Shown: piece by piece, positions 8,498 to 61,034 of the stretch
Numbering within the stretch: position 1 is the first letter of the stretch
Layout of the letters: each line of letters starts with the position of its first letter
Assembly: GCA_963778645.1 (NCBI GenBank)
Contig: CAVZVH010000021.1
Coordinates: 17,191 to 81,190, forward strand
DNA length: 64,000 bases
Origin: an uncultured Chloroflexia bacterium
GTDB lineage: Bacteria > Chloroflexota > Limnocylindria > Limnocylindrales > CSP1-4
Direction: 5' to 3'
The notes under the pieces: model-generated
Seen by the model: only the letters and a program-made list of their open reading frames with translations
The model's database searches: none
Told to the model about the DNA's origin: nothing
Translations under genes and position numbers: made by a program

Positions 8498-10175
<1,678 letters not shown>

Positions 10176-10260
10176 GGGTCAAGGGTAGCGGGCGAGGCGG
10201 ACACGGGGCGGCCCGCGACTCGGCGATGTCAGCGTGACGCCCGCCCGTTAGGCTGGTCGA

Positions 10261-11843: not shown

Positions 11844-11856
11844 GCCGGATGAGACG

Positions 11857-44874: not shown

Positions 44875-45793
44875 GTGACCACCGCCTCGAAGAAGGCCAA
44901 GCCGTCGTCGTCCGGCCCCGGCCCGCTCGTCAGCGTCGATTGGCTGGCGGCGAACGTTGCCCGCCCGGACCTTCGGCTCGTTCACGTGTCGACCGTCCGG
45001 CGCGTCTACAACAAGCACCATATCGCCGGCGCGACCTACAGCGACCTCCACAAGGAGCTCGCGTTGCGCGGGACCGCGCCGGAGACGGGCGAGGCCGTAC
45101 GCGAGTGGCTCGTCCCCACCCGCGAACAGGTCGAGGCCATCCTGCGCCGCTGGCGGGTCGGTACGGGCGACCGGGTCGTCATCTACGACGATATCGGCCT
45201 CAATCGCCATGCGATCCGCGGTTACTGGCTCCTCCGGTTGTACGGCTTCCCGAAGGATCGAGTCCACATCCTCGACGGCGGCATCGAAGCCTGGCGACGC
45301 GCCGACCAGCCGACGACCACCGACATCCCCGAAGCCGATCTCGCCGACGGGCTGCGCGCGCCCGTCGAGCTCGGCGAGCGCGACGAATTCGCTGGTCGCG
45401 ACGTACGACGAGGTCCTGGCCTGGAGTCGCGAGTCGAACGGCGGCGCCGATGCACCGACCCGCATCCTCGACGTCCGAACGGCCGGCGAGTATGTCGGCG
45501 CCGACCTTCGAGCGAAGCGTGGCGGCCACATCCCGGGTGCACGCCAGCGCTGCTTCGTCGACCTGCTGACCGACGACGGCACGTTCCGGCCGGTCGATGA
45601 GATGGTCGCGCTCGTCCGTGCCTCGGGCGCCGACCCGGACCAGGTACGCGTGACGTACTGCCAGGGTGGGGTGCGCGCCGCGCTCGTCTGGTTCGTCCTC
45701 CACGAGTTGGCCGGCTACGAAGACGTCCGCAGCTATGCCGGCTCCTGGGAGGAATGGGGGAATCGCGCGGACAGTCCCATCGACAGCCCCTAG
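44875..45793 (+). CDS. Thiosulfate/3-mercaptopyruvate sulfurtransferase (tandem rhodanese domains). Apparent frameshift ~45380-45395
   Basis: Two rhodanese domains. Active-site loop CQGGVRAA in the second. Confidence 0.8.
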
Positions 45794-45889
45794 CCTTCGC
45801 ACCCCACCGAGGGCTATCCTCGCCCACAGCGATGACCACGACGCGTGGTCGGGTCCTGACGAGCGCGCGCACGTCGGAGGGAGCGAGAG

Positions 45890-46465
45890 ATGAGCACCGC
45901 TTCAGGCACGACGGACCAGGCCCAGGCGATGATGGCCGGAGTGGCCAGATCGTGGGGTCTCGTGCTCGTCATGGGGATCCTGAGCATCGTCATCGGGATC
46001 CTGGCCATCGTCTGGCCGGGTGCGACCATCGTGACCGTCGCGATCTTCTTCGCCGCCTGGCTGTTCGTCAGTGGCATCTATTCGATCGTTGGTGCCTTCA
46101 CCGAGGACGCGAGCACGGGCCACAAGGTGCTCTCCGCGATCATCGGCGTCCTCTCGGTCATCATCGGGTTCTCGCTGTTGCGGAGCCCGTTCCAATCGGT
46201 CGAGGTCGTGATCTTCGTGTTGGGGATCTTCTGGGTGTCGCAGGGGATCGTTGGATTCGTCATGGCCTTCGAGGTCAAGCAGGGTCGCGGCTGGCGACTG
46301 GTCAGCTCGATCCTCGGCGTCATCGCCGGCATCATCATCCTGGTCTACCCGATCAGCTCGGCCCTGACGCTGGCCTTGTTCGGCGGCATCTGGCTGATCA
46401 TCCTTGGTATCACCCAGATCGTCGCGGCCTTCCAGCTTCGGGGTCTCGCGAAGGCCGGTTCCTGA
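45890..46465 (+). CDS. HdeD family acid-resistance membrane protein (DUF308)
   Basis: Six TM helices with repeated GI(L/W)xI motifs. Confidence 0.65.
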   Translation: MSTASGTTDQAQAMMAGVARSWGLVLVMGILSIVIGILAIVWPGATIVTVAIFFAAWLFVSGIYSIVGAFTEDASTGHKVLSAIIGVLSVIIGFSLLRSPFQSVEVVIFVLGIFWVSQGIVGFVMAFEVKQGRGWRLVSSILGVIAGIIILVYPISSALTLALFGGIWLIILGITQIVAAFQLRGLAKAGS

Positions 46466-46577
46466 AGCCCGGTGGTCGGGGCGGCGCCCGGCCTCGTGCT
46501 ATCCTGTCGCGCGGCGTCGACCCGACGCCCACCACGCGTGCGGCCCCGGCACAGCGCTCGGAGCCCCGCGTCTCCGC

Positions 46578-46652
46578 TCCGGCGTAGCTCAGTGGTAGAG
46601 CGGGCGGCTGTTAACCGCTTGGTCGTAGGTTCGAGTCCTACCGCCGGAGCCA
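46578..46652 (+). tRNA. tRNA-Asn (anticodon GTT), CCA encoded
   Basis: Cloverleaf: acceptor TCCGGCG/CGCCGGA, D-arm GCTCAGTGGTAGAGC, anticodon loop cuGUUaa, T-arm GGTTCGAGTCC. Confidence 0.9.
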
Positions 46653-46850: not shown

Positions 46851-47255
46851 CTACTCGGTGACGGTGACAGTCAGGTTCATCGAAGGATGGATGGTGCAGG
46901 TCACCTTGTAGGTGCCCGGCGAGAGCCTGATGTCGTGCGTTTGGTCCCCGCTGCCCATCGAGATGGCCTCGAAGGCCGGGCCCGCGACCTCTGTGCCGTT
47001 CTCGCCGACGACGATTCGGTGATCGAAGTCGTCGTTGTTCTTGAAGGTTATCGGGTCTCCAAACGCAACGGTGATGCTGGCCGGGCTGAAGGCGTTGCTC
47101 GAGATGGTGATGGTGCCGTCCCCTCCCGCGCCGCCATCTCCGCCGGTCGGACTGGCCGTGGGGCTGGCGCACCCGGCCAGGACGATGACCAGGGCCATTG
47201 TCCAGGCGAGCGTTGCCCTGCGTGGTGGGCGAGCGGCAACGAACGGGGCATGCAT
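46851..47255 (-). CDS. Cupredoxin (type-1 blue copper) lipoprotein
   Basis: Lipobox LAGCAS. Copper ligands …FDHRIV… and C-terminal CTIHPSM (Cys-x2-His-x2-Met). RBS GGGAGGAGG. Confidence 0.7.
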   Translation of the reverse strand: MHAPFVAARPPRRATLAWTMALVIVLAGCASPTASPTGGDGGAGGDGTITISSNAFSPASITVAFGDPITFKNNDDFDHRIVVGENGTEVAGPAFEAISMGSGDQTHDIRLSPGTYKVTCTIHPSMNLTVTVTE

Positions 47256-47537
47256 GGTCGGCGACCTCCTCCCGGTGACATCGGGGCGGGGCGTTCCGCC
47301 TGCACGCATTTTGGGGCAGGCCGCGCACTGCCGCCACCCGCCCCAGCGCCCACGTAAGGAGGTATGCCGGCAGTACGGTCGCTGCAGTGGCGTCGGACAG
47401 GCGACCGGCGGCCTCAGCCTGATGCCATCGCTCGCACTCAACGGACCCGACCGGTAGGGTCGTCCTGAGGGCCCCCCGCCGATGGCGGTGTGCGGAAGCC
47501 GGCTTGGCCGCGAACGGTTGAACGTACAATCTCCCGA

Positions 47538-47597
47538 ATGGACGGCCACGCGCCCAGTCGGACCGGCCCGGCCCGACCGAGGTCAGGTCCAGAGTAG
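47538..47597 (+). other. Putative short uORF (19 codons, MDGHAPS…) at the end of a conserved leader element upstream of corA
   Basis: ATG immediately 3' of TACAAT-containing conserved 42-nt element. A paralogous uORF (MEGPRAS…) precedes the GH13-like gene at 48820. Confidence 0.3.
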
Positions 47598-47712
47598 GCC
47601 GGGAACCCGTTCGTAGGCACGCATGACCGACCGACGCTCACGCTTCCAGTTGCCGACCAGGCGATCGACTGCCGGGACGGATCCACCTCACGAGCCGGCC
47701 CCCGAAGTGTCG

Positions 47713-48771
47713 ATGGAAGCACGTCCGGAGGACGTCGCGGCACCCGTCGAGCAGAGCGTGGTCGATGCCGCGATCTATCGCGAGGGCCACCGCATCGAGA
47801 CGCCGCCGACCGTGGCCGACGCGGCGCGACACATGCGGGAGCAGCCGGGCACCATGGCCTGGATCGGACTGTTTCGGCCGTCCGCCTCGCAGCTTCTCCC
47901 GGTCGCCGATCAGTTCGGGCTCCACGAGGTCGCGGTCGAGGACGCGATCGTTGCCCATCAGCGGCCCAAGCTGGAACGCTACGGGGACACCCTCTTCGTG
48001 GTCCTTCGTGCAGCGACATACCTCGACGACGTCGAGGAGGTCGAGTTCGGCGAGATTCACGTGTTCGTTGGACCGGCCTTCATCCTGACGGTTCGACACA
48101 GCCGGACGCCCGATCTCAGCGCCGTCCGCCACCGGATGGAAGGTGACCCGGAGCTCCTTGCCCGTGGCCCAGAGGCCGTGCTGTACGCGATCCTCGATAG
48201 CGTCGTGGACGGCTATGCCCCAGTCATCGCCGGGCTCCAGAAGGACATCGATGAGATCGAGACCGAAGTCTTCCGCGGCGATCCGAATGTCTCTCGTCGG
48301 ATCTATGAGCTGTCCCGCGAGGTGATCGAGTTCCAACGAGCGACCCGTCCGCTCCTCGGGATGCTGGACGCTTTGGCCCTCGGCTTCGACAAGTACCACA
48401 CTGACGATGACCTGCAACGCAACCTGCGGGATGTCGCCGACCACGCCACGACCGTCGCCGAGCGTGTCGCCGTGTTCCGCCAGATGCTGACCGACATCCT
48501 CACGGTGAACGCGACCCTCGTGAACCAGGCGCAGAACGAGGAGATCAAGCGGCTCACTGAGGCCAGCTACGACCAGAACGAGGAGGTCAAACGCGTCTCG
48601 GCCTGGGCCGCGATCCTATTCGCGCCGACGTTGATCGGCACCGTCTATGGCATGAACTTCGACTCGATGCCAGAGCTCCACTGGGAGCTTGGCTATCCGC
48701 TTGCGCTGGGCCTGATGATCCTCACGAGCGTGACGCTGTGGGTGATCTTCAGAAGGCGGGGATGGCTATGA
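47713..48771 (+). CDS. corA: Magnesium/cobalt transporter CorA (start may be 47623)
   Basis: C-terminal two TM helices with YGMNF motif. Confidence 0.85.
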   Translation: MEARPEDVAAPVEQSVVDAAIYREGHRIETPPTVADAARHMREQPGTMAWIGLFRPSASQLLPVADQFGLHEVAVEDAIVAHQRPKLERYGDTLFVVLRAATYLDDVEEVEFGEIHVFVGPAFILTVRHSRTPDLSAVRHRMEGDPELLARGPEAVLYAILDSVVDGYAPVIAGLQKDIDEIETEVFRGDPNVSRRIYELSREVIEFQRATRPLLGMLDALALGFDKYHTDDDLQRNLRDVADHATTVAERVAVFRQMLTDILTVNATLVNQAQNEEIKRLTEASYDQNEEVKRVSAWAAILFAPTLIGTVYGMNFDSMPELHWELGYPLALGLMILTSVTLWVIFRRRGWL

Positions 48772-48819
48772 CGGACGACGACGGGCAGTAGCCGAGGCGG
48801 TTATACGTACAATCTCCCC

Positions 48820-48858
48820 ATGGAAGGGCCACGCGCCTCCGCCGGCACCCACGGGTGA
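48820..48858 (+). other. Putative short uORF (12 codons, MEGPRASAGTHG). Stop overlaps the GTG start of the downstream gene (GTGA)
   Basis: See the 47538 element. Conserved sequence and position. Confidence 0.3.
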
Positions 48859-50396
48859 CCTCGAGGACGCGCCGTCGGGTCGCCGGAGCCATCGTCGTGA
48901 TGGTGGCAGCTGGAGGGGTGGCGATGATGGCGGCGCGACCGGACCTGGGACCAGCGCCCGCACCAGGCGTCCCGGGGACCCCGTTCTCCGACGGCGGCAG
49001 CTGGATCTACCACTACATCCACACGCCCGAGCCGCCCACGTACGGCGCGACGACGTTCTCGACGATCACCGAGCGGATCGTTGGTGACTACTACACGAGT
49101 CGCGGCATCACCAACCTGATGATCTACGCCCCGTACCGCAGCACCGGCGCGTTCCGCGGCCTGCCGGCGATCGACTTCCTCGACACGAGTCCCGAGAACG
49201 GAACGATCGAGGACTTCCGGACGATGGTCGCGACAGCCAATGCCAAGGCCATCACCGTGACCATGTACATCGCCCTGATCTACATCAGTCCGCTGAACCC
49301 GATCTTCGAGAAGGCACAGGAGGATCGTCGCAACGGCGTCGATTCGCTGGAACGCCGGATGCTTCGATGGGATGAGCGTGTCCCGGAAGGGTCCAATCCG
49401 CCACCCGGCGGCGCACCGCCTGACGAGCAGGAAGTTCCGCGCCCGGTCGAAGGCGACTGGGCATGGAGCGAGGTCGCGCAACGCTGGTATGCGACCAGTT
49501 GGGGTCTCCCTGCCGTCGACTACGCGAGCGATAGCACCCGCGAGTACGCGAAGGACGTGCTCCGGTTCTGGATGGATCTCGGGGTCCAGGGGTTCGAGTA
49601 CGACATCCCGATGTCGTACTGGGGGATGCAGGGCACGGACGAAGCCCGGCAGACCGAGGTCATGGTCACGACGCCTCGCGAGCACCGGCCCGACACCGAG
49701 CTCTACCTGCACGCCGAGGGCTATGGGACGTTCGAGAACGAGGCGTACAGCGACCGGGTCGGCTTCACGCACATCATGATCAACGGCGACGACGACCTGG
49801 ACTCATTCGTCACCCGAGCGGGGCGCGTCCCGCAGACGGGCACGGTCGATCAACTCGAGGACCAGTGGGCGACCTATTTCGATCCTCGCCAGGCAGCAGG
49901 ACGGGGCGTCTACGCCGTGTCGCTCTACGACATCGATCTCGATCCACGGCTCCGGGCGCTGGACGCGGCCGTCCAGGCGGGCATGGGCGCCCAATACGCC
50001 ATCGATCACGAGGAGCTCATCGAGAACTCGAACGGCCCGATCCTCCCCGCGACGACCATCGAAGGCGTGTGGGACGTCTTCCGGTCGCTGCGAGCGTCGC
50101 CCGCCCTCTCACCCTCCGCGTCGCGGCAGCGGGTGCCGACCGTCGATGATCCGAGCGCCTATGCCATCAAGCGGACCAGCCTGGACGGCACCCGCACAGC
50201 CTTGCTCGTCTACAACTTCCACGATGAAGAGGTCACGATCACGCTCGACCTCGCGGGCAGCGGCATCGCGCTCCCGCAGCGTTCGATCGACCTGGTGACC
50301 GGCGAGCCCGGGCCGATGCTCGAGTCGACCGCGCCGACCTTCACCCTCGAGCCCTACGGCTATCGGTTCCTGGATGTCCGGACGAGCGTGTCATGA
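48855..50396 (+). CDS. Secreted alpha-amylase family (GH13-like) protein
   Basis: Signal peptide. …YRSTGAFRGLPAIDFLDTSPENGTIEDFRTMVATANAKAITVTMYIAL… matches the GH13 beta3/beta4 region pattern. Catalytic motifs look diverged. Confidence 0.5.
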   Translation: MTSRTRRRVAGAIVVMVAAGGVAMMAARPDLGPAPAPGVPGTPFSDGGSWIYHYIHTPEPPTYGATTFSTITERIVGDYYTSRGITNLMIYAPYRSTGAFRGLPAIDFLDTSPENGTIEDFRTMVATANAKAITVTMYIALIYISPLNPIFEKAQEDRRNGVDSLERRMLRWDERVPEGSNPPPGGAPPDEQEVPRPVEGDWAWSEVAQRWYATSWGLPAVDYASDSTREYAKDVLRFWMDLGVQGFEYDIPMSYWGMQGTDEARQTEVMVTTPREHRPDTELYLHAEGYGTFENEAYSDRVGFTHIMINGDDDLDSFVTRAGRVPQTGTVDQLEDQWATYFDPRQAAGRGVYAVSLYDIDLDPRLRALDAAVQAGMGAQYAIDHEELIENSNGPILPATTIEGVWDVFRSLRASPALSPSASRQRVPTVDDPSAYAIKRTSLDGTRTALLVYNFHDEEVTITLDLAGSGIALPQRSIDLVTGEPGPMLESTAPTFTLEPYGYRFLDVRTSVS

Positions 50397-51454
50397 GTCG
50401 TCCCGACCGTCGCGTGCCAGTGTCCGAGGCGAGCGCCGCCCCGCGCCAACGCCGGCCGACCCAGGCCGACGTGGCCCGACTCGCCGGGGTGTCCCAGGCA
50501 CTCGTGTCGTACGTCCTGAACGGCACCGATGTGAGCGTGACACCTGCGACTCGGCGGAAGATCCTGCATGCGATCGAGTCGCTCGGGTACATCCCACATG
50601 GCGCGGCTCGCAGCCTGCGGACCCGGCAGACCATGACGATCGCGTTGGTCGTGCCGGACATCACGAATCCGTTCTGGCCCGAGGTGCAACGAGGCGTGCA
50701 GGAAGTCGCCGACCGCGCCAACTACCAGGTCATGACGTTCAACACCGACAATGAACTCGGGAGACTCACCAGCGTCTGCCTTTCCATCCTGGGCGCCGGG
50801 GCAGACGGCGCGATCATCTGCGACCTGGGTGAGTCCGCCCGGGACGTCGGTCGGCTGGTCTCGAACGGTATTCCCGTCACCTATATCGGTGGAGGCCATG
50901 GAGTCGATGCATCCGTGGATCGGGTCGGGATCGACAACGTCGCTGCCGCCCGGGAAGTCGGGCTCCTTCTCGCGAAGCGCGATCTCGAGCGGATCGCCAT
51001 CATCGCCGGGTCACCGGAGACGACGAATGGAGCCGATCGCTTGCGGGGCTTTCTCGAGGGCCTCCGTGATGGGGGTCGATCACCCGCGACGACGGAGATC
51101 GCGTACGGCGACTTCACGTTCGAGAGTGGGCAGCGGGCGATGGACGAGCTGATCTCTGGCCGAGGCGTTCCGCCCGACGCCGTCTTCGCAGCCAATGACC
51201 TGATGGCGCTCGGCGCGATGCAAACGCTCCAGGGGGCCGGGTTCGACATCCCGAAGGACACGGCGCTCATCGGCTTCGATGACATCGCGGTCGCGCGGAT
51301 GGTGACACCAGGCCTGACGACCGTCGAGGGGCCCAAGCGCGCCCTCGGCCAGCGAGCCGCCGAACTGTTGATCTCGCGCATGAGCATGGACATCGACGCA
51401 CCGGCGCGCATCGAAGTCCTGCCGTGCTTGCTGGTTGTCCGAGCGTCGGCGTGA
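50393..51454 (+). CDS. LacI family transcriptional regulator
   Basis: N-terminal HTH …PTQADVARLAGVSQALVSYVLNG… plus periplasmic-binding-fold effector domain. Confidence 0.85.
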   Translation: MSRPDRRVPVSEASAAPRQRRPTQADVARLAGVSQALVSYVLNGTDVSVTPATRRKILHAIESLGYIPHGAARSLRTRQTMTIALVVPDITNPFWPEVQRGVQEVADRANYQVMTFNTDNELGRLTSVCLSILGAGADGAIICDLGESARDVGRLVSNGIPVTYIGGGHGVDASVDRVGIDNVAAAREVGLLLAKRDLERIAIIAGSPETTNGADRLRGFLEGLRDGGRSPATTEIAYGDFTFESGQRAMDELISGRGVPPDAVFAANDLMALGAMQTLQGAGFDIPKDTALIGFDDIAVARMVTPGLTTVEGPKRALGQRAAELLISRMSMDIDAPARIEVLPCLLVVRASA

Positions 51455-51494
51455 CGCCGATCCCGTATTGCGACGATCGACGTTGACCTGGGTG

Positions 51495-54033
51495 TCATCC
51501 ACCGGCGCGTGACGCGTTTCGACGGGCGAGGTCGCGGAGCTCGCGGTCGGCGGACGTGAACACGGTTCTGATCCGGCGCTGGGACGATCGATCGCCTCGT
51601 GTCGCAAGGGTATCCAGCCAGGCGAGGCCGCCGGCGACGATCGTCCTGAGGTAGGTGATGTCGGCGCGTGCGTCGACGTGACGATCGCCCACGAGATAGA
51701 TCGGCGACGTATGGGCGGCCATCTGGACCGGCCATACATGCTGTGCGATGAACGGACTCGAGGTGCGCGCAGCGATCCAGCCACCTTGCGAGGCCCGGAT
51801 CGTCGTCTTGAGTTCCAGGAACCGATCGCCGCGGGGCTCGGTGGTCGGCCTCGATGACGCTCCCGTTGTAGACGAGTTCCAGTCGGTCGAGGGGAGCCAC
51901 GCAGCGGGCTGTCGCATGCACGGCAAGGCTTGCTCCCGGTCCGATCGCGATCTCCTCGCCGAGCCCGACGCCTTCGACAGCCAGATCGATGAACGGTCCG
52001 CTGGAGGTGGACGTTCGACCGGATCGCACGGCGTTGGTCCAGCTCTGCCACGAGGTCGGGCCTGTCCCCACTTGCGCGTAGGTCCGCAGGCCACCGATGG
52101 GCATGCCCGCACTCATCTTGTCGGTGCCACCGACGACGGGAACGCGCAGGCCGCTGTTGAGCAGGCGGTACCACTCGCGCGTGGCGTAGGTGTCGACACC
52201 CGACCAGAAGTCGCGGATCTCCAGGGCGTCGACGCGGCCGAGGGCGACGTCGGCGACCACCTCGCAGTACGGGTTGGGGAAGTGCGGGACGACGGCCAGG
52301 CCACCCCGCAGTCGACTGTCATCGGCCCAATCCGAGATGCTGGTCCAGGCCGCGTCGCCGAGGTACGACTCGTCAGGCCCCGCCGAGCTGAGTGGGGCCG
52401 TGATCCTCCCGCTGGTCCCGAGCAGCGACAGATGCCCCAGGATGTGCTGGCGGTTCTCGGTCCCGACCCAGACGAGCGTGCCGTCTCGACTGACCGGCGA
52501 TAACTCGCCGGTGACGTCACCGACGTTCGTGAACAGATCGCCCCATTGGGCCGCCAGCAGGTTGACGATGCTCAGGCCCTCGGCCTGACCCTCCAGCCAC
52601 GCCGTCTCGGGCGACAGGAAGTGAACATGGGTGTCGGCGCCGATCCAGCCTTGTCGCCGAACGTCGCTCGTCCGCTTGAGATCGACGACGACCGGATCGC
52701 CTGAGTTGGACACGCCGGCCTTCACGACCATCCGGACCGGCTCGAATTCGAAGCCCTTGACCACCTCGACGAAGACGTCGTTTGCCGGAAGGCGGACCTG
52801 GAACGATCCAGGCACGTACGCGTAGTTCGTCCGGCCGAGCTTGAGATCGGCGCCGTAGTCCTCGAACCAGCGATCGTTGACCTCCTGCCGGTGGCCGACC
52901 GGAGGCAGGTACCTGCCCTGGCTGGTTCGAACGTGGACTCGCGACGGCGTCAGGGCGCCGGTCTCGGAATCGCGAACCTCGAACGAGACGAGGCGCGTCG
53001 GCTCCGGGAGCCTCTCGATGCGGACGCCGTTCGACAGCCGGGTGTGGCGCCGCCGCCTCAGCTCGGCCATCGACGCGCTCGCCCCCGCGACGGTGACGGC
53101 TCCACCCTCGGCGGCCGCGACCTGGACGATGCGGGCGGTCGGTGGGACCGGCCCGGCCTCGTCGCCCCACCCGACGACCGCGGGGCGACGCCATGCGGTC
53201 CGATCCGTCGGTTGGAGGTCCAGCGTGCGCGCGATCAGGCCCAGATCGACCTCCACGGCGGGCGGTGAGTCTGACGCATCCGAGTCGACGACGAGGCTCA
53301 TGAGGCGCGCACGCCGGAGCGGGTGGGCGACCGACCGGACCAGGGTGATGGCCCCGATGGCAATCCAGTCCGAGCTCGTCGCCTGGAGCTGTAGACCCGC
53401 GAGTGGCACGGCCGGGCGGGGGTTCCGAAGGGCGAACAGCCAGTAGGCTCCGAATGGAGGGACGGTCGGCTCGCCCCATGCCACGCCCGCGTAGTCCCCG
53501 CCCTGGACGCCCGTTTGATCGGCGCCCCATTCACCCTCGGCATGCGGACCGCGCCACTCCCTGGATCGGACATCGCGATGGGGAAGACTCGCGAATGCGG
53601 CTTGACCCCAGCCGACGACGAGGTCGTTGATCTCGAACCGTCGCCGGATCGGCACGCTCCGCCGGACCGCGTCCGCATACACGAGCGAGTAGGTGGCGAG
53701 GCGGGCACCTGGGTCGAGGATTCCCGGACCCGGAGCATGTCCGCTGGTCGCATCTGGGCCCGTGGAGAAGTGGGCAACGACCACCCAATCCGTCAGGGCG
53801 TCATCGATGACGACATCCGCGTGAGGCGCCGTTGGCAGACCGAGCCAGCGCTGGCGAGGCGTCGCGCCATCGGATGCAAACTCGAACGGGATCCCCCACA
53901 GCGTCTGGTCTCCGCCGGGAAGGGCCCGGATGGCACCGCCGATGCTGGGGTGGAGGGCAACGTCGGTCGTCGATCGCGGACCATCCACCGGACAGATGGC
54001 GGAGACGGGCACGGGCGCAAATGAAGGCCGCAT
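51495..54033 (-). CDS. CehA/McbA-family (PHP-like) metallohydrolase with large N-terminal domain. Apparent frameshift ~51790-51810. The long 50881..54033 ORF tail is antisense to lacI
   Basis: …GWIGADTHVHF…, …HILGHLSLLG…, …VVPHFPNP…, …VVGGTDKMS… metal-ligand blocks. GC3 shows the true C-terminus in ORF 51495..52112 frame. Confidence 0.55.
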
Positions 54034-54036
54034 GCG

Positions 54037-55059
54037 TCAGGATGTGAGGCGGCCGAGGGTCGCGGTCGCCAGAGCACGCTGGTCCGTTGCCTTCCCGATG
54101 GCCAGCGACGCCAGTCTGGCGCTCATACGCTGCTCGCTCTTGAGCCGCTTCGAGCCGAGCGACGTCCGCCAGGTCGGAGGCAGCGATCGGGCGCCCGCCA
54201 GTGCACCGGAGATCGACCCGACCATGGCCCCGATGGTATCCGTGTCGCGCCCGAAGTTCGCCGCGGATTCCACGCACCGCAGCGGATCTCCCTCGGCCAG
54301 GGCCAGGAGGCCGAAGACGGCCGGCACCGTCTCCCGTGCGTCGCAGGCAACGGGTTGGCGGAACGTCTGGTGATATCGACGCCGAAACGTCTCGTAGTCT
54401 TTCGCCCGCCTGGCCAGTATCAGAGCCTGCGCGATCAGGCCTCGCATCACCGCGCCGGAGCGCCGATGCAGGTCGGCTCCGGCACCCCCGAGCACATCAG
54501 CGAGTGACGCCCCCGGCACGACGGCGATGGCGACGGCGGCCGCGATAGCCGCGGCGGCGTCGGCGCAGAACGAGACCGGTCCCTGGTGGATCAACGACCC
54601 CAGGGACCACGCCTGGATCGCGGCGGCACGCGCGTTTCCAGCGTTCACGATGCCGACCGGCGCGATGCACATGGCCGAGCTCGAGCTCGCCATGTTCCCG
54701 TTCGCGACGCTCCGTGCGTCGAACCCCATCGCCAGCTTCTCCGCCGTCTGCAGCACCGACACGAAGAACTTCGGTCGTAGCGGGCCAGTGAACAGGTCGC
54801 GATGGGCGATCCATCGTTCTGCCCAGTCGTCCGGTCCGGCATACCCGTCGGTCGCCAGCAAGGCCTCGCAGAGGAGCAAGCGCATCGCCGAGTCATCGGT
54901 GCCAGACCCTGCAACGGCCGTGACCCAACCGAACCGGCTGGCGATGTCGTCGGGCTCCATGTTCTCCGTGGGTGTGCCCATCGCGTCGCCGACCAACCCA
55001 CCGATGAGACATCCCAGGACTCGATCCTCGAATTCCCTCGCCGCGGGCGCGACCTTCAT
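54037..55059 (-). CDS. ADP-ribosylglycohydrolase family protein (DraG-like)
   Basis: …RVLGCLIGGLVGDAMGTPTE… N-terminal motif. ~340 aa. Confidence 0.7.
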   Translation of the reverse strand: MKVAPAAREFEDRVLGCLIGGLVGDAMGTPTENMEPDDIASRFGWVTAVAGSGTDDSAMRLLLCEALLATDGYAGPDDWAERWIAHRDLFTGPLRPKFFVSVLQTAEKLAMGFDARSVANGNMASSSSAMCIAPVGIVNAGNARAAAIQAWSLGSLIHQGPVSFCADAAAAIAAAVAIAVVPGASLADVLGGAGADLHRRSGAVMRGLIAQALILARRAKDYETFRRRYHQTFRQPVACDARETVPAVFGLLALAEGDPLRCVESAANFGRDTDTIGAMVGSISGALAGARSLPPTWRTSLGSKRLKSEQRMSARLASLAIGKATDQRALATATLGRLTS

Positions 55060-55934
55060 CCCTTGAGTCCCACCGACGCGATCCCACCGATGAGGCGGCG
55101 CTGCAGGACGAAGTACAGGATGATCGGTGGCGCCATCATGAGGAGGTTTGCCGCCATCACCAGGTTCCAGTCCGTGCCGCGAAGGGTCACGCTGTTGGCC
55201 AGGCCCAGGGCGACGGTGAACTGGCTGTTTCGCTCCAGATAGATCAGCGGTCCGAGGAGGTCGTTCCAGCTGCCCAGGAACACGAAGACGGCGCACACCG
55301 CGAGGACCGGCTTGGTGAGCGGCAGGATGACCCACCAGAAGATCGCGAGATGCCCGGCCCCATCGATCCGTGCCGCCTCGTCGAGTTCACGCGGGATCGT
55401 ACGCATGTACTGGCGGATGAGGAACACGAAGAAGGCGCTGCCGAAGAATGACGGCACGATCAGGGGCAGGTACGTCCCGTACCAGCCGATCGTGTGGAAG
55501 ATCAGGAACTGCGGAACCATCAGCGCCTGCCACGGGATCAGCATGGTCAGGATCAGCAGCCTGAAGAGGCGATCCCGCCCGCGAAATCGCATCCGAGCGA
55601 ACGCGTATCCCGCCACCGAGCAAGAGAAGAGTGTCCCGATCAGGTTCCCGGCGAAGATCGTCAGCGTGTTCAGCATGTAGAGGCCGAACGGTCGATCCGG
55701 CTGCGTCATCGTGCGGACGAAGTTGTCGAATGCGAAGAACTTCGTCGGGAACCACTCCGCCGGGATGGTGAAGACCGGTACGCGATCGGGCTTCAACGCG
55801 ACCGTGATCATCCAACCAACGGGCAGGAGCACCACGACGGACAGAAGGATGAGCAACGCGACCGTGGCGCCGCGACGGGCCAGCGCCGACCAGCGAATCG
55901 GCTTCCGTGGTGGGCTCGCGAACGACGGCGCCAA
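55056..55934 (-). CDS. Carbohydrate ABC transporter permease (MalG-like)
   Basis: Six TM helices, EAA loop region. Confidence 0.8.
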   Translation of the reverse strand: MAPSFASPPRKPIRWSALARRGATVALLILLSVVVLLPVGWMITVALKPDRVPVFTIPAEWFPTKFFAFDNFVRTMTQPDRPFGLYMLNTLTIFAGNLIGTLFSCSVAGYAFARMRFRGRDRLFRLLILTMLIPWQALMVPQFLIFHTIGWYGTYLPLIVPSFFGSAFFVFLIRQYMRTIPRELDEAARIDGAGHLAIFWWVILPLTKPVLAVCAVFVFLGSWNDLLGPLIYLERNSQFTVALGLANSVTLRGTDWNLVMAANLLMMAPPIILYFVLQRRLIGGIASVGLKG

Positions 55935-55937
55935 CGG

Positions 55938-56872
55938 TTACTTGCCTTCGGTCTCGTAGTACACGAACCGCTCCGAGGCTCGCATCGCAAGCAGGATCAC
56001 CCCGGTGGCAGCGAGGACGAAGACCAGGCCGAGGGCGGATGCGTAGCCGATCCGACCGCTGCGAAAGCCCTCGTTCCAGAGGTTCAGGAGATAGAACAGG
56101 AGCGACCCGCTCGAGCCTCGGCTGCCGCCGAGGACGTACGCGACGTCGAACACCTGGAAGGACCCGATCAACGTCGTGATGAAGAGGAAGTAGAGCGTCG
56201 GCGAGAGCATCGGCAGGGTGATGTGCCGGAACTTCTGGCGGGAACCGGCGCCGTCGATCTCCGCCGCCTCATAGAGCTGGGCGGGGATGTTCTGGAGACC
56301 GGCGAGGTAGATGATCGCGGCGCCACCGACCGTCCAGACGCTCGTCAGGACGACGGCCGGCACAGCCCAATCCGGGTTCGTCAGCCACCTCGGCGGGTTC
56401 TCGATCCCGAGACTCCGCAGCAGCTGGTTCAGGATCCCGAACTCCGGGTTGAGGATCTGGAGCCAGAGCACGGCGACCGCGACCCCGGCGATGACCGATG
56501 GCACGAACATGATGGTTCGGAACAGGCCGATGCCCCGCACCGGACGATTGAGGAGCAGGGACAGTCCGAGCCCCAGGACCAACAGGATCGGCAATGACAG
56601 AAGCGTGTAGCGGAGCGTCACGCCGACCGATTGAAGGAACCGGCGGTCGGACACCATCGAGACGTAGTTGTCCAGACCGACGAACCGCGGTGTCGTCGCG
56701 AGGGTCCAATCGGTCAGGCTGATGGCGGCCATCACGACGACGGGAAGGCCGATGAACAGACCCAGACCGGCCAGCCACGGGCCGACGAAGAACCACGCGG
56801 CGGGCTCGTCCGAGGACAAGCCCGCCGGTCGTGCGAACCGACGTTCGCGGGAGATGCCGGACACTACCCGTC
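55938..56872 (-). CDS. Carbohydrate ABC transporter permease (MalF-like); GTG start ~56872, with the long upstream extension of ORF 55938..57503 rejected
   Basis: …IDGAGSRQKFRHITLPMLSPTLYF… EAA motif. Confidence 0.75.
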
Positions 56873-56907
56873 GGCCGAGCACGGTAGGAGTGGAGCGCCG
56901 GACCGTG

Positions 56908-58236
56908 CTACTGGATCTTGTCCCACGACTCCCATTCCCGGTCGAGGTCCTCCTGCATGAGCGGAGCCGCGGCTCGAAGTGCGCTGCCCGCGTCGCCGTT
57001 CTCGACGATGCTCGTGAAGGTCTCATCGAGGATCGGGCCCAACACGGAGAAGAAGCCGGGCACGAAGGCCCGCTGCCTTGCCTGAGCCGCCAGGTCGAGG
57101 AGGATCTGTCGCTCAGGCGCTCCGGTGGCCCAACCGGTGTCCTTGGCCAGCTGGAGATCGAGTGGCGGCGCGCCGGCCTCCGCTCGGACCTTGTTGCCCT
57201 CTGTCGCGATCCAGACCACCAGCTCCTTGGCCTCGTCCGGGTGCGACGCCTTGGTCGGGACGGCCCACATGTCCATCCAGGTCGATGCCCACACGGGCTC
57301 ACCGGCACGCTCCACCGGAAGGGGAGCCACGCCGACGTCGACGCCCTGCTCCTGGAGCTCGCCGACGGCGGTGTTATCGCCGATCGCCATGGCCAGCTGA
57401 TGGGTCGCCAGGAGATCGGTCGATTCGATGCCGGCCGCCTCCTGTTCGGCTCCTGTGATCCCGACGCCATCCCTGGCCATCTTGGCGAGGACGTCCCAGG
57501 CATGGATCGTGGCTTCGTCGTCGACCAAGCCGATCACGCTGCGACCATCCTCGCTGTAGAGATTCGTCGTGTCCATCCACCAGTGTGTCGGCGCGACCTC
57601 GCCTCCCCAGACCCGCTTCGCCAGGTCCGGATCCGGCTTCGCGAGCGTCGTGGCGACCTGCGCGTACTCGTCGACCGACATCGGCACGGTCGCCGACGGA
57701 TGCGGCAGACCCGCGGCGTCGAATGCCTGCCGGTCATAGAGCAGCACCACCACCCCGAGGTAGCTGCCAAGGCAGTACAGCTTCCCGTCGAGCATGCAGC
57801 CCCCGAGCGGGCCCTGGGCGTATCGAGTGAGGTCGATGCTGTTGCTCGCGAAGACCTCATCGAGGGGATGGAACGCGCCCGCCTTGAGCCAGCGTGCCTC
57901 ATACATCAGGGCGACGTCGGGCGGTGAGCCAGCGGCGAACGCCGTGTCCAGTTTGGTGACGTAGAGGTCCTCCGGCACGAGCGTGACTTCTAGCGTGATG
58001 TTCGGGTGGGAGGCCTCGAAGCCCTCCTTGAACCTCGGGAGGATGCCGTCCTCACCCTCGAAGACCCAGAGGTCGAGCGAGACCTTCTCGCCGGTCGCGG
58101 CCGAGCTCGTGGCGCCCGCCGAAGCGTTGCTGGAACCCGTCGGTGTCACGGACGATGGTGCCGACGTCCCGCATGCCGAGATGAGCAGAGCGCCGGCCAT
58201 GAGGGCGCCGGACGTCCGCCTGCCGAAGACCGTCAT
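56908..58236 (-). CDS. Sugar ABC transporter substrate-binding lipoprotein
   Basis: Lipobox LLISACGTS, family-1 SBP features. Confidence 0.8.
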   Translation of the reverse strand: MTVFGRRTSGALMAGALLISACGTSAPSSVTPTGSSNASAGATSSAATGEKVSLDLWVFEGEDGILPRFKEGFEASHPNITLEVTLVPEDLYVTKLDTAFAAGSPPDVALMYEARWLKAGAFHPLDEVFASNSIDLTRYAQGPLGGCMLDGKLYCLGSYLGVVVLLYDRQAFDAAGLPHPSATVPMSVDEYAQVATTLAKPDPDLAKRVWGGEVAPTHWWMDTTNLYSEDGRSVIGLVDDEATIHAWDVLAKMARDGVGITGAEQEAAGIESTDLLATHQLAMAIGDNTAVGELQEQGVDVGVAPLPVERAGEPVWASTWMDMWAVPTKASHPDEAKELVVWIATEGNKVRAEAGAPPLDLQLAKDTGWATGAPERQILLDLAAQARQRAFVPGFFSVLGPILDETFTSIVENGDAGSALRAAAPLMQEDLDREWESWDKIQ

Positions 58237-59039
58237 GATCGAGCCTCCTCGAGCTCCGTGCGTTCCGTGTTGTCATCCGCGAATGAGGTCGCCGCCGGGG
58301 CGACCCGTACCTCGTAGCTCCCCATCGTGCCCTCCTCGCACACCAGCCCGACCGCACCCCCACGAAGCGAACGCGGCGATTCGTCGACCACGTCGGCGAT
58401 CAACCCGCCATCGACCCATGCCCTGATCCGAGGTCCGATCACCTCGAGCGCCAACGCGTACGACCGGAAGTACTCCAGGTCGAATGCGACGTCCGCCAGG
58501 ACCGTGACGTCGTCATTGGCCCGGACGACCCTGGCCCGCCCTTCGTTGGTGAGCAACAGGGCGTAGTAGCGACGGAGACCCTGCACGCGCGCCGCGACAC
58601 CGGCCGCGGCCGCCATCCACAGGGTCACATCCGCGTCGACGCGATAGTCGGTCCAGTCGAGGGACCCCTGACTGATGAGGCCCGTCCCCCGGTTCTGCGA
58701 GAAGCGGTAGGTCTCAGGTTTTCGTGCCTCCCAGACGTCGACGGCATCGATCCATGCGCGGCGCCACATCGTTCCACCATCGACGGGGCGACCGAGCCTC
58801 ACGGTCGGTGACCCCGACCATGACAGCCAATCCAGGTGGATGGCGCCCTTCGCCTGGCCCGAGACCTCGACCCCGACTTCCGCGATCGGCTGACCGCCGG
58901 TCTCGGGCACCGGCCAGCGGAGTTCGACTCGACCGCCGGGCTCCAACGACTCGGCCGGACCGCGGAGCCAGCTGAGCTCGTCATTCCCCGTGTAATGGGC
59001 GAGGATCAGCCGAGTCGTTGACCGGACCAGTGGTGTCAT
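58233..59039 (-). CDS. Hypothetical protein (268 aa), unknown function
   Basis: High GC3 ORF between an ADP-ribosylglycohydrolase paralog and the ABC transporter. Confidence 0.4.
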   Translation of the reverse strand: MTPLVRSTTRLILAHYTGNDELSWLRGPAESLEPGGRVELRWPVPETGGQPIAEVGVEVSGQAKGAIHLDWLSWSGSPTVRLGRPVDGGTMWRRAWIDAVDVWEARKPETYRFSQNRGTGLISQGSLDWTDYRVDADVTLWMAAAAGVAARVQGLRRYYALLLTNEGRARVVRANDDVTVLADVAFDLEYFRSYALALEVIGPRIRAWVDGGLIADVVDESPRSLRGGAVGLVCEEGTMGSYEVRVAPAATSFADDNTERTELEEARS

Positions 59040-60393
59040 CCGACAGTCGGACCGCCGCCCGGAGGTCCTGGCCGGCGTGGAGCGTCGGGGAGGCCAGGAG
59101 CCGATACCCGATCATGTTGATCGCGCTCGGCGGGATGAACGTCGGTGTCGTCAATCGCGTTGACCCGGGGCCCGGATGGTCGAAGCCACAGCGCAGGCTT
59201 CTGCGCCCCGTGGTACTCCCGCCTTCGACGTTCATCAGCATCGGCGGATCGCCGGTGGCATCCGTGTCGGCCGCAAAGCCCTGGACCGCGCCATCGAACT
59301 CGAAGTGGAAGCGCGCCCCGCGCTTCGGGAGGACGGGATCCTCGCCTGCCATCCGACGACCCGCCGTGGTGATCCGCCCTGCCTCGATCACGGCGTCGGT
59401 GATCGCGCGGCCCCCCTCGGCAGTCGGCAGATACATCCGATCCGCCACCGGGCCACGCCAGTCGACCGTCCCGCTCAATCCGGCGAGACCAACCTTGATC
59501 CCCATCAGACAGCCGATGTTGCCGGAGTTGCAGTCGGTATCCCAACCACCGGTGTTGACGATCGAAAGGGTCCGGCTGAAGTCGTCGTCGCCCCATAGCA
59601 GGCTCAGGATCATCAGGCCGTGGTTCGGGACGACATGGACGTTGCCGCGGTATCGGTGGTATCCGTATCGCTCAGCGAGCCGCTCCCGGGCGACCCGCCA
59701 GTCCGGTTCGCCGACCCGCCAGTCCCGCAGGTCGGCGATCAAACGGGCGATGACCGAATCGGGCGGGATGAAGGACAGCCCGGTGTCGAGTAGACGGTCG
59801 AGGTCCCCATCGACGAACGCCTGGGCTTCCATCGCGGCGAGCAAGGCCGCGGCGTGCACGGCCTCGCCGTCGTGGCTGACGCTCGCCGCCGTCCGGGCGA
59901 GTGCCGCCGCCCGTGCCGGATCTCCCGGTGACGCCATCGCCCAGGCGTCGATGAAGATCTGGGCGCCGATCTGTTCGGACGTCTCACGACCGTTCAAGGC
60001 GGCCGACCCGCTGCGAGGTGCCGGTACGCCCGACTTGAGACGCAGGTAGGCGGTGTGCTCCGTCGAGTGTCCGAGGCCTCCCCACCACAGGATCGTGCGG
60101 TTCTCGATGAGGTAGTTCAGCCATGCTCGGCCGACCGCCTCGGACCCGAGGTCGGGGTCGTAGCCGCTGTCCTCGAGAGCGCGGAAGAACGTGAACGTCC
60201 CCGTGATGTCGTCGTCGGTGACGATCAGCGGGACGCCGAGCTGCTCATGGACATAGCCGGTGATCTCGCCGAGTTCGTCGGTGATCCGCTCGTAGGTCCA
60301 GCCTTCGACCGGTCGGCCCAGGTAGACGCCGATGATCTTGCCAAGGACGCCGGCGTAGACACGCTCCTCGTAGTCGGTCGGGATCGACGACAA
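58981..60393 (-). CDS. ADP-ribosylglycohydrolase family protein (second paralog)
   Basis: …VLGKIIGVYLGRPVEGW… and …GGWDTDCNSGNIGCLMG… blocks. Confidence 0.7.
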   Translation of the reverse strand: MSSIPTDYEERVYAGVLGKIIGVYLGRPVEGWTYERITDELGEITGYVHEQLGVPLIVTDDDITGTFTFFRALEDSGYDPDLGSEAVGRAWLNYLIENRTILWWGGLGHSTEHTAYLRLKSGVPAPRSGSAALNGRETSEQIGAQIFIDAWAMASPGDPARAAALARTAASVSHDGEAVHAAALLAAMEAQAFVDGDLDRLLDTGLSFIPPDSVIARLIADLRDWRVGEPDWRVARERLAERYGYHRYRGNVHVVPNHGLMILSLLWGDDDFSRTLSIVNTGGWDTDCNSGNIGCLMGIKVGLAGLSGTVDWRGPVADRMYLPTAEGGRAITDAVIEAGRITTAGRRMAGEDPVLPKRGARFHFEFDGAVQGFAADTDATGDPPMLMNVEGGSTTGRRSLRCGFDHPGPGSTRLTTPTFIPPSAINMIGYRLLASPTLHAGQDLRAAVRLSDDTTGPVNDSADPRPLHGE

Positions 60394-60423
60394 CTCGAAC
60401 GCTCCTCCTGCGAGTTATTCGTA

Positions 60424-60944: not shown

Positions 60945-61034
60945 TGCTGGCGATCGTCGGGGATAGGATGATACGTATCATCGACGGGCACGGGCTCGGG
61001 TGGATCGAAGGTCGAGGAGGAGGAGCAGCCTCGG

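Follow-up and report, generated by a model that had tools for sequence, protein, structure and literature searches.

Introduction

Why should the same short stretch of DNA stand directly in front of two functionally unrelated genes? This question is raised by a 64-kb stretch of DNA (hereafter the window) from an uncultured, high-GC soil bacterium of the phylum Chloroflexota, in which a 41-nt element is found once upstream of corA, encoding a Mg2+/Co2+ channel, and once upstream of a gene for a GH13-like glycoside hydrolase. Regulation of Mg2+ transporters by short ORFs and structured leaders is known from other bacteria, with the M-box riboswitch and mgtL-type leader peptides as examples. An earlier note on this DNA had described the element as a promoter followed by a leaderless-type upstream ORF (uORF), and had proposed a regulatory device common to both genes, i.e. 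a Mg2+-, pH- or stress-responsive uORF or a riboswitch-like leader. Based on comparison of the window with related loci, we here favor a different reading, which we consider fairly probable: the element would comprise the promoter, a LacI-type operator and the 5' end of a leaderless uORF belonging to a sugar locus, and would have been duplicated once in front of corA. Since the extra copy precedes corA in this genome only, the element is best regarded as an ordinary regulatory module and not as a Mg-sensing device.

Results

A sharply bounded repeat native to the GH13 locus

Both copies of the element lie on the plus strand. Copy 1 (CGGTTGAACGTACAATCTCCCGAATGGACGGCCACGCGCC, 47515-47554) is located 68 nt 5' of corA (PF01544; 47623-48771, plus strand), whose ATG start is confirmed by a conserved N-terminus in orthologues, while copy 2 (CGGTTATACGTACAATCTCCCCATGGAAGGGCCACGCGCC, 48798-48837) sits 1283 nt further 3', directly upstream of the GH13-like gene (PF00128 and SupH-like_C; 48855-50396, plus strand). 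In a gapped alignment the copies are identical in 35 of 41 columns, and they share an exact 14-mer, ACGTACAATCTCCC, that occurs nowhere else in the 64 kb. Two or more matches to it appeared in none of 100 shuffled sequences. Likewise, the local alignment score of 48 lies far above that of dinucleotide shuffles (19.9 ± 3.0; 0 of 500 as high). The repeat noticed previously is thus confirmed, as are the TACAAT hexamer in both copies, the ATG 6-7 nt behind it and the short ORFs of 19 and 12 codons opened there. On both sides of the two copies the similarity of the flanks does not exceed the shuffle level, so that the repeat is sharply bounded. For the same reason, we reject the idea that copy 1 has retained part of the 5' GH13 coding sequence.

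All six orthologous GH13 loci that we compared (L001, L002, L003, L140, L141 and L142; 76-83% amino acid identity) retain the invariant sequence ATACGTACAATC, whereas sequence farther 5' cannot be aligned among them. The hexanucleotide GAGGCG just 5' of copy 2 resembles the orthologues, while the bases 5' of copy 1 do not, which indicates that copy 2 is the original and that copy 1 is the later addition in front of corA. As judged from these alignments, copy 2 is therefore ancestral. The corA copy resembles copy 2 (35/41) about as closely as the orthologous elements do (30-37 of 40-45). In L139, a more distant GH13 relative (64% amino acid identity), the element is absent and the gene sits behind another gene; both the GH13 gene and the adjacent LacI gene of L139 look fragmented.

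Two scans beyond these loci carry no information on further copies of the element. An exact scan with TTRWACGTACAATCTCCC of representative genome contigs, a set that evidently does not include the source genome, gave 11 matches at chance level, all of them in taxa without any close relationship (Planctomycetes, Bacteroidetes, Vibrio and others), and among the matches listed in a scan of metagenome contigs with TTRWACGTACAATCTCC only chance ones were left after filtering by G+C content and flanks, the known relative L003 not being recovered among them. By exact protein look-up, neither the GH13 protein of the window nor P0001 is on record.

A predicted leaderless promoter

The hexamer TACAAT (48808-48813, plus strand), which we take as the predicted -10 box of the GH13-lacI operon, is invariant in all seven loci and is found at 47525-47530 in copy 1. 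The ATG of copy 2 (48820) follows 6 nt and that of copy 1 (47538) 7 nt past the hexamer. All six orthologues have an ATG or GTG at 6-7 nt as well, the RTG being kept at this position in 7/7 loci though the adjacent bases diverge. A TAnnnT -10 box ending 6-7 nt 5' of an AUG or GUG is a known signature of leaderless transcripts (PMC3160421), and both copies and the six orthologues show exactly this spacing. The window as a whole is enriched in the arrangement TAnnnT-N6/7-RTG, which occurs 16 times at spacings of 6-7 nt compared to about three times at each other spacing. Nine of these 16 occurrences open ORFs of at least 100 amino acids, and six of the nine are gene starts supported by Pfam. Because real genes in the window make use of this arrangement, a leaderless transcript is credible here, too. 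In this respect the earlier description of a promoter with a leaderless-type uORF holds up well, with at least six real gene starts of the same architecture and a start codon kept in every locus.

A good reading of the element is hence a predicted -10 promoter with a start codon at 6-7 nt, i.e. a leaderless short ORF. TACAAT would act as a sigma-70-type -10 box, and transcription would begin 6-7 nt further on, at the first base (A or G) of the start codon or right beside it, which would render the mRNA leaderless. No recognizable or conserved -35 box accompanies the hexamer, and a simple sigma-70 scan around both copies returned no promoter match. The sequence ATACG found 5' of the -10 box is absent from the other leaderless promoters in the window, which argues that general promoter function does not account for this additional conservation.

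A candidate LacI-family operator overlapping the -10 box

Downstream of the GH13-like gene lies an intact gene for a LacI-family repressor with HTH and periplasmic-binding-protein fold (50393-51454, plus strand). Its start overlaps the GH13 stop codon (ATGA), which suggests that the two genes are co-transcribed, and the GH13-LacI synteny is also found in L001 and L002. The encoded protein is a candidate for binding a 16-bp imperfect palindrome in copy 2, GGTTATACGTACAATC (48799-48814), composed of the half-sites GGTTATAC and GTACAATC around a central CG, with six of eight symmetric pairs. Besides this operator-like 16-mer and the -10 box, copy 2 includes the first 18 nt of the predicted leaderless uORF. 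The corresponding 16-mer of copy 1 (47516-47531; half-sites GGTTGAAC and GTACAATC) contains TACAAT and likewise has six of eight symmetric pairs, one of which was created by a substitution of its own.

Even palindromes with a central CG account for about 90% of LacI-family motifs, and 72% of such transcription factors are autoregulated (Ravcheev 2014, PMC4052901). The site at 48799-48814 falls into the length range of 16-22 bp described for these operators (PMC4052901). With a position 41-56 nt 5' of the GH13 GTG, it also lies within the usual distance of about 30-140 bp, with a LacI-family gene in or adjoining the operon.

A related and perfect 16-bp palindrome, GATGATACGTATCATC (60967-60982; half-sites GATGATAC and GTATCATC), which shares the core ATACGTA, is observed in an intergenic region 5' of a minus-strand sugar-ABC/ADP-ribosylglycohydrolase operon and of a divergent alpha/beta-hydrolase gene. 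It contains TATCAT, and thus a TAnnnT box, on both strands. The string of minus-strand genes from 50881 to 60944, convergent on the LacI gene, is a putative co-regulated operon with synteny in both L001 and L002. It comprises GGACT/AH_C-like, ADP-ribosylglycohydrolase, unknown, solute-binding protein and permease genes, a further ADP-ribosylglycohydrolase and a 1050-amino acid CehA/McbA-like metallohydrolase. A weaker operator-like site, GCTGATACGAATAACT (60413-60428, minus strand), which alone is not significant, lies between the GGACT-like and ADP-ribosylglycohydrolase genes. Finally, L142 possesses a second site, GAGTATACGTACATTC, 1.15 kb 5' of its GH13 site, whose likeness is confined to the 16-mer.

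Within the window and the loci fetched for comparison, the motif thus recurs in the six orthologous GH13 loci, at 60967 and in L142. Owing to their common descent, the orthologous GH13 sites amount to little more than one independent instance of the operator, and only the 60967 palindrome, the second site of L142 and, weakly, the site at 60413 count as independent. A 12-bp palindrome, TTGWACGTWCAA, had been tried as a regulon probe and was rejected; with two mismatches allowed it matched only the two copies, a count not above chance. A search with the 12-mer at two mismatches also matched two unrelated places. The 16-bp view proved more informative.

Could the element be nothing but a strong promoter with a leaderless uORF, devoid of any transcription factor site? 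The six additional conserved bases 5' of TACAAT would then represent an extended -10 or UP-like sequence, the likeness of the 60967 palindrome would be coincidental and the corA copy a duplicated promoter. Leaderless promoters are indeed common in the window, independent operator instances are few, and for perfect 16-bp palindromes in general there is no enrichment (3 observed versus 2.6 expected). Against this stands the absence of ATACG from the other leaderless promoters. Furthermore, the core ATACGTA occurs in the 64 kb solely at the two promoter regions that flank the LacI gene, i.e. the GH13 promoter site and the 60967 palindrome, a perfect 16-bp palindrome with this core arose only once in 200 shuffles, and the second site of L142 has the 16-mer alone in common with the element. 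We thus consider a plain promoter unlikely.

Taking together the palindrome with its central CG, the perfect palindrome of the same core at the adjacent operon and the co-transcribed LacI-family gene, the 16-mer is probably a LacI-family operator that overlaps the -10 box, and the palindrome at 60967-60982 is probably a second operator of the same repressor. The repressor encoded behind the GH13-like gene would bind the 16 bp, whose right half coincides with the -10 box, occlude the latter and thereby autoregulate the GH13-lacI operon. Through the 60967-60982 palindrome it would also control the ABC-transporter/ADP-ribosylglycohydrolase operon.

Two frame states upstream of the GH13 start

The uORF of copy 2 (uORF2; MEGPRASAGTHG, 12 codons, 48820-48858, plus strand) ends with a TGA that overlaps the GTG of the GH13-like gene at 48855 (GTGA), as had been noticed before. 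An N-terminal segment read from this GTG, VT.R.RRWVAGAIV..., is conserved as protein in the orthologues and constitutes a signal/anchor segment; public gene calls place the GH13 start 23 codons too late. The upstream start codon precedes that of GH13 by 35 nt in the window and in L001, L002, L003 and L142, which results in a 12-codon uORF with GTGA overlap in 5/7 loci. In L140 and L141 the offset is 36 nt and the upstream start is fused in frame to the GH13 ORF without a stop, leaving no separate uORF. The GTGA overlap does not count as a feature of its own, because the 35-nt offset together with the conserved GTG-ACC produces it automatically. The uORF peptides are not conserved (MEGPRASAGTHG, MGRAKRHRSVSA, MRGPRVSLGANG, MLRPHASVGTRR and MDFTSRLRRRSV). 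The earlier note had in addition pointed to similar N-termini of the uORFs of both copies. Here, the likeness stems from nucleotide identity of the first three codons only, since behind codon 3 the copies are out of frame by a 1-nt indel: CCACGCGCC encodes H-A-P in copy 1 but P-R-A in copy 2.

According to our reading of the sequences, none of the seven loci contains an SD-like run before the GH13 start. The window thus combines the two traits of NUGA-type coupling, a 4-nt stop/start overlap and an SD-less downstream ORF. Ribosomes would load on the 5'-terminal start codon and translate the 12-codon uORF2, the UGA of which forms a GUGA with the start codon of the SD-less GH13 ORF, and the GH13 protein would then be made by termination-reinitiation. 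In L140 and L141, owing to a 1-nt difference, it would instead be translated by direct read-through with an N-terminal extension. The uORF2 peptide as such would have no function. In one of these routes the main ORF would itself be leaderless and extended by 12 residues, in the other a leaderless uORF of 12 codons would be followed by GUGA reinitiation. More tentatively, the two routes may be interchangeable and toggled by natural 1-nt variants among close relatives. The SD-less GH13 with its signal peptide would then be translated only via the 5'-terminal start codon, and the 41-nt element would form a cassette that can be copied to recruit corA into the sugar regulon. We regard this extended proposal as possible rather than probable.

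The corA copy as a lineage-specific duplicate

Four corA orthologues (L004-L007; 83-88% amino acid identity, on four contigs and each in a different context) show no trace of the element in their upstream regions. Conservation in relatives, named previously as a check, is therefore found for the GH13 loci and not for corA. Given that the four corA orthologues lack the element, the copy in front of corA arose by a lineage-specific duplication of 41 nt comprising the promoter, operator and 5' end. Judged by this distribution, it is a historical accident and not a conserved Mg2+-related device. The idea of a device common to unrelated genes thus gives way to an element native to the GH13-LacI sugar locus. 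The uORF of copy 1 (uORF1; MDGHAPSRTGPARPRSGPE, 19 codons, 47538-47597, plus strand), whose end lies 25 nt 5' of the corA ATG, probably arose as a side effect of the duplication.

Another route to two copies would be the insertion or recombination of a 1.24-kb corA segment beside the GH13 leader, leaving the direct repeats as a scar and copy 1 without present function. The direct repeats have sharp limits and just one gene between them, and the context of corA differs in every relative examined. The upstream neighbor of the GH13 gene also differs in every locus, which points to a rearrangement-prone junction. On the other hand, no integrase or transposase was detected in the checked ORFs adjoining the segment, no recombinase domain appeared in the neighboring ORFs tested, and the G+C content of the segment is ordinary and like that of its flanks. 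Moreover, copy 1 retains TACAAT, a start codon at the right spacing and six of eight palindromic pairs, and the GAGGCG evidence identifies it as the copy added upstream of corA. Taken as a whole, a functionless scar appears distinctly unlikely to us. The scar reading is compatible with the duplication step of our explanation and differs from it only with respect to the activity of copy 1. A tRNA-Asn gene lies 0.9 kb upstream and has no repeat in common with the element.

As regards this activity, the features retained by the duplicate suggest that copy 1 is probably still active as a promoter, which would put corA under the same control as the GH13-lacI operon.

No signs of an RNA leader or attenuator

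The element matches no Rfam family at gathering thresholds in a search of the whole window, including the M-box, and at E ≤ 5 the region 47200-49000 gave a chance snoRNA match only. Around both copies we found no terminator-like site and no relevant intrinsic terminator or antiterminator, and the folding energies of the two leaders are ordinary (MFE z-scores of -0.87 and -0.91). Covariation analysis, as recommended in the earlier note, concerns the only predicted leader hairpin, CCUCCG...CGGAGG around the GH13 GUG, which is 89% paired across cells and shows covariation no better than shuffles. The right arm of this hairpin coincides with conserved coding sequence. A leader-peptide attenuator finds no counterpart here either, given that the peptides differ, the frames differ and a terminator is missing. 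Although the element does precede corA in this genome and Mg2+-transporter leaders exist elsewhere, a cis-regulatory attenuator or riboswitch-like leader responding to Mg2+, pH or stress and common to both genes is highly improbable in view of these results, of the corA orthologues without the element and of the two GH13 orthologues without a separate uORF.

Discussion

The arrangement proposed here resembles autoregulated local LacI sugar regulons of the RegPrecise type (Ravcheev et al. 2014, PMC4052901), with which it shares the even, palindrome-like 16-bp site with central CG, the location of that site 41-56 nt 5' of the first structural gene, a regulator encoded in the same operon, carbohydrate-related targets and a second, better palindrome at the promoter of an adjacent ABC-transporter operon. 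It differs from these in that the site, with the motif GnTkATACGTAymAwC, is putative. Furthermore, the right half-site doubles as leaderless -10 box, and an additional site precedes the gene of a metal-ion channel.

With regard to translation, leaderless uORFs and 4-nt NUGA stop/start overlaps have been reported for Mycobacterium tuberculosis (D'Halluin et al., bioRxiv 10.1101/2022.06.01.494293) and leaderless short ORFs for mycobacteria (Canestrari et al., bioRxiv 10.1101/834739). The GH13 locus shares with these systems the start codon at the predicted mRNA 5' end, the short uORF, the GUGA overlap, the downstream ORF without canonical SD and the proposed hand-over by termination-reinitiation. 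Here, however, the host belongs to the Chloroflexota and not to the Actinomycetota, the arrangement is predicted from sequence, and the uORF state gives way to the in-frame fusion in some close relatives. As the uORF lacks regulatory codons (e.g. poly-Cys), there is no sign of amino-acid sensing. The likeness to Mg2+ leaders such as the M-box/ykoK riboswitch or the mgtA/mgtL leader peptides is limited to the position 5' of a Mg2+ channel gene and to a short ORF; the element matches no Rfam family, neither its structure nor its peptide is conserved, and its original home is a sugar locus.

The main value of the analysis is thus a correction, which turns an apparent common sensor into a sugar-locus promoter/operator with one lineage-specific duplicate. 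It also provides GnTkATACGTAymAwC as a candidate operator motif for an uncharacterized LacI-family regulator of a poorly studied soil lineage, and draws attention to public GH13 start calls that, being late, miss the signal/anchor segment. The TAnnnT-N6/7-RTG architecture and a predicted leaderless uORF with GUGA overlap are hereby found beyond the Actinomycetota, where they have been described. The natural frame-toggle among the relatives represents a possible experiment for comparing termination-reinitiation with direct leaderless initiation. If our tentative proposal is true, leaderless extension and uORF-GUGA reinitiation would be functionally interchangeable routes in this lineage.

Results and Discussion

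Direct reading of the sequence places the element that the earlier note described upstream of corA and of a GH13-like gene at 47515-47554 (copy 1) and 48798-48837 (copy 2), both on the + strand and 1283 nt apart. A repeat finder returns the copies as a 40-nt repeat pair, and in a gapped alignment they are identical in 35 of 41 columns, with a Smith-Waterman score of 48 compared to 19.9 ± 3.0 for dinucleotide shuffles. Common to both is the exact 14-mer ACGTACAATCTCCC, which is found nowhere else in the 64 kb, even when two mismatches are permitted; two matches were obtained in 0 of 100 shuffles. The flanks directly 5' and 3' of the core do not exceed shuffles in score, so the repeat is sharp-ended. 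Copy 1 precedes corA (47623-48771; PF01544 and TIGR00383) and copy 2 a gene for a GH13-like hydrolase (48855-50396; PF00128 and SupH-like_C), whose stop codon is overlapped by the start region of a LacI-family gene (50393-51454). As claimed previously, TACAAT (47525-47530 and 48808-48813) is followed in both copies by an ATG, after 7 nt in copy 1 and 6 nt in copy 2, which opens a short ORF (uORF1 and uORF2, respectively).

The GH13 protein has few close relatives, and the comparison set consisted of six orthologous loci with 76-83% amino acid identity (L001, L002, L003, L140, L141 and L142). T(T/C)ATACGTACAATC is found upstream of GH13 in all six; hereby, the 12-mer ATACGTACAATC is invariant, sequence farther upstream is unalignable, and the gene upstream changes from locus to locus. 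At a more distant GH13 locus (L139, 64% amino acid identity) the element is missing. CorA has hundreds of close relatives, the named ones being Chloroflexota MAGs; the corA upstream regions of four related contigs (L004-L007, 83-88% amino acid identity) show no trace of the element, and the corA neighbourhood is different in each. GAGGCG directly 5' of copy 2 resembles the corresponding bases of the GH13 orthologues, while the bases 5' of copy 1 do not. Retention at GH13 orthologues, absence at corA orthologues and the orthologue-like bases 5' of copy 2 thus indicate that the GH13 locus is the ancestral home of the element and that the corA copy is a lineage-specific duplicate, rather than part of a device shared by the two genes, as had been proposed. 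The similarity of copies 1 and 2 is about equal to that of orthologous copies (30-37 of 40-45). The latter reflects constraint, since neutral sites should be saturated at 80% protein identity; the similarity of the corA copy could result from recency or from constraint. Scanning a genome collection for further copies yielded 11 chance-level matches in unrelated phyla, and the matches listed for a metagenome collection were chance matches only.

A simple sigma-70 scan around the copies gave no -35/-10 pair, so the promoter assignment is based on the -10 box. In the window, TAnnnT is followed by ATG or GTG 16 times at spacings of 6-7 nt, compared to about three times per other spacing, and ORFs of at least 100 aa are opened in 9/16 versus 15/53 cases. 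Six of these nine are Pfam-supported genes with domains starting near the N-terminus (ABC-F ATPase, GntR/FCD regulator, LuxR/TPR regulator, RibD_C, DinB_2 and caspase-domain protein). The spacing excess and these gene starts thus suggest that leaderless transcripts are frequent in the window, and copies 1 and 2 both match the pattern. All seven GH13 loci keep the start codon 6-7 nt past TACAAT (four ATG, three GTG), and the bases after it are strongly divergent. Elsewhere in the window, an 85-bp gap (10176-10260) separates the divergent ABC-F ATPase (8904-10175, - strand) and caspase-domain (10261-12477, + strand) genes, each of which starts exactly 6 nt past a TAnnnT hexamer (TACCCT and TAGGCT, respectively); this gap looks like a back-to-back leaderless promoter pair.

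uORF1 comprises 19 codons and uORF2 12 codons; as noted earlier, the stop of the latter overlaps the GTG at 48855 (GTGA). In the window, L001, L002, L003 and L142, the upstream start lies 35 nt before the GH13 start, giving a 12-codon uORF ending in GTGA; in L140 and L141 the offset is 36 nt, which puts the upstream start in frame with GH13, with no stop. The overlap follows of necessity from the 35-nt offset together with the conserved GTG-ACC and provides no independent evidence. The similar N-termini ascribed to the two peptides did not hold up: an indel places the shared CCACGCGCC in different frames in copies 1 and 2, and uORF peptides are unrelated in sequence across loci. The peptide is therefore not regarded as the functional object.

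No SD-like sequence precedes the GH13 start in any locus. Because the segment from the GTG (VT.R.RRWVAGAIV...) is conserved at the protein level, the GTG is probably the real GH13 start and the annotated starts lie too late. Public gene calls span 486-503 aa (P0001, 490 aa; P0006, 486 aa; P0007, 495 aa; P0002, 503 aa), with the start picked at an internal ATG past an in-ORF GGAGG. The 23 omitted codons (48855-48924, VTSRTRRRVAGAIVVMVAAGGVA; likewise in L001, L002, L140 and L142) are conserved as protein and resemble a signal peptide or membrane anchor. The simplest reading would be ribosome loading at the 5'-terminal start codon of a leaderless mRNA, with GH13 being reached directly in the in-frame variants and by termination-reinitiation at GUGA in the others. 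In M. tuberculosis, leaderless uORFs are on record, as are NUGA overlaps in which the downstream ORF lacks an SD (bioRxiv 10.1101/2022.06.01.494293); the GH13 locus likewise combines a predicted leaderless uORF with a GUGA overlap and an SD-less downstream ORF. The natural toggle between uORF and in-frame states among relatives is a small point of interest.

A riboswitch-like leader or leader-peptide device, as suggested before, found no support in Rfam, folding or terminator searches. Rfam gave no match at gathering thresholds and one chance match only at E ≤ 5, leader folding energies are ordinary (z about -0.9), and no terminator-like site was found near the copies. RNAalifold does predict a hairpin enclosing the GH13 GUG with 89% pairing by pair counting; in covariation, a check suggested for the element in the earlier note, this hairpin does not surpass shuffles, and conserved coding sequence makes up its 3' arm. 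None of these results supports a riboswitch or an attenuator.

The six bases before the -10 box are invariant in the GH13 loci, and the other leaderless promoters of the window lack ATACG at this position. GGTTATAC-GTACAATC is a palindrome-like site of even length (16 bp), symmetric in 6/8 pairs and centred on CG. The great majority of LacI-family motifs are palindromes of even length (16-22 bp) with CG at the centre; the operators are mostly located 30-140 bp 5' of start codons, and autoregulation applies to 72% of the regulators (PMC4052901). The candidate site shares the even 16-bp form and the central CG. As motif form, position and autoregulation are typical of the family, the conserved block, which overlaps the -10 box, is probably the operator of the LacI-family repressor encoded in the same operon, a reading to which few independent sites contribute.

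The 7-mer ATACGTA occurs twice in the 64 kb, namely in the element and in the perfect 16-bp palindrome GATGATAC-GTATCATC at 60967-60982. Perfect 16-bp palindromes show no overall enrichment (3 observed vs 2.6 expected); 200 shuffles produced a single one with an ATACGTA core. Between the two sites, positions 4 and 13 change together (T/A vs G/C). The palindrome contains TATCAT, a TAnnnT hexamer, and is intergenic, upstream of a minus-strand gene string (~60944 to 50881; GGACT-like, ADP-ribosylglycohydrolases, solute-binding protein, permeases, CehA/McbA-like metallohydrolase) which is convergent with the LacI gene and has syntenic counterparts in L001 and L002. L142 holds a second site, GAGTATACGTACATTC, 1.15 kb upstream of its GH13 site and before an alpha/beta-hydrolase gene, with similarity restricted to the 16-mer. 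A weaker site at 60413-60428 is, alone, not significant.

Two further observations concern these regions. At 498-523 of L142, two TATACGT copies stand 13 nt apart (TATACGTgggagTATACGTACATTC), the second belonging to the operator-like 16-mer; they are located where a minus-strand gene call has its 5' end, and 133 nt upstream of an alpha/beta-hydrolase gene. The GGACT/allophanate-hydrolase-C-like gene (60428-60944, - strand) shifts frame about a third in, near 60660-60670: the Pfam match is confined to residues 24-90 of an ORF of 239 aa, and the second frame, with plausible sequence (GEPPGLYVGSVELIDGRVVPGVLF...), runs to a TGA at ~60428. Either a frameshift, a pseudogene or misassembly accounts for this.

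Copy 1 retains the -10 box, the start codon at 7 nt and 6/8 palindromic pairs, one of which arose from its own A-to-G change. uORF1, for which there is no counterpart elsewhere, stops 25 nt short of the corA ATG. Neither a recombinase gene nor a compositional anomaly was seen at the corA segment, and a tRNA-Asn gene 0.9 kb upstream of copy 1 has no part in the repeat. This tRNA-Asn (GTT; 46578-46652) starts within the last 10 nt of an ORF at 45754-46587 (277 aa, no Pfam match) and is followed by a minus-strand cupredoxin gene, the likely start of which is ATG 47255 after GGGAGGAGG, not the listed GTG 47549. Between the cupredoxin gene and corA, at 47356-47468, a perfect SD-like AAGGAGG (47356-47362) is followed only 1 nt later by the ATG of an Arg-rich ORF of 34 codons (MPAVRSLQWRRTGDRR...); a normal SD would require a longer spacing. 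In related contigs, the corA orthologue adjoins a second CorA paralogue, convergent or divergent (L004 1945-8528, L005 6001-8164, L006 4396-6583), and in L004 also MgtE and two Nramp genes, a metal-ion transport cluster not present in the window. In the more distant L139 (1607-2615 and 5660-7644), the gene calls split the LacI-family gene into an HTH part and a ligand-binding part, and GH13 homology begins ~330 nt upstream of the called start; the sugar locus there seems to be in decay or wrongly assembled.

In conclusion, the element is best described as the promoter, the probable LacI-type operator and the beginning of a leaderless-type uORF of a GH13-lacI sugar operon, with one apparent lineage-specific duplicate before corA. 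The earlier observation thus stands, and its interpretation is supported in part, namely as a promoter with a leaderless short ORF; the Mg2+- or riboswitch-type sensor and the functional peptide find no support. LacI operators and leaderless uORFs with NUGA coupling are already known kinds, and the element would join both. Should copy 1 be active, corA would have come under a sugar-responsive promoter in this lineage.
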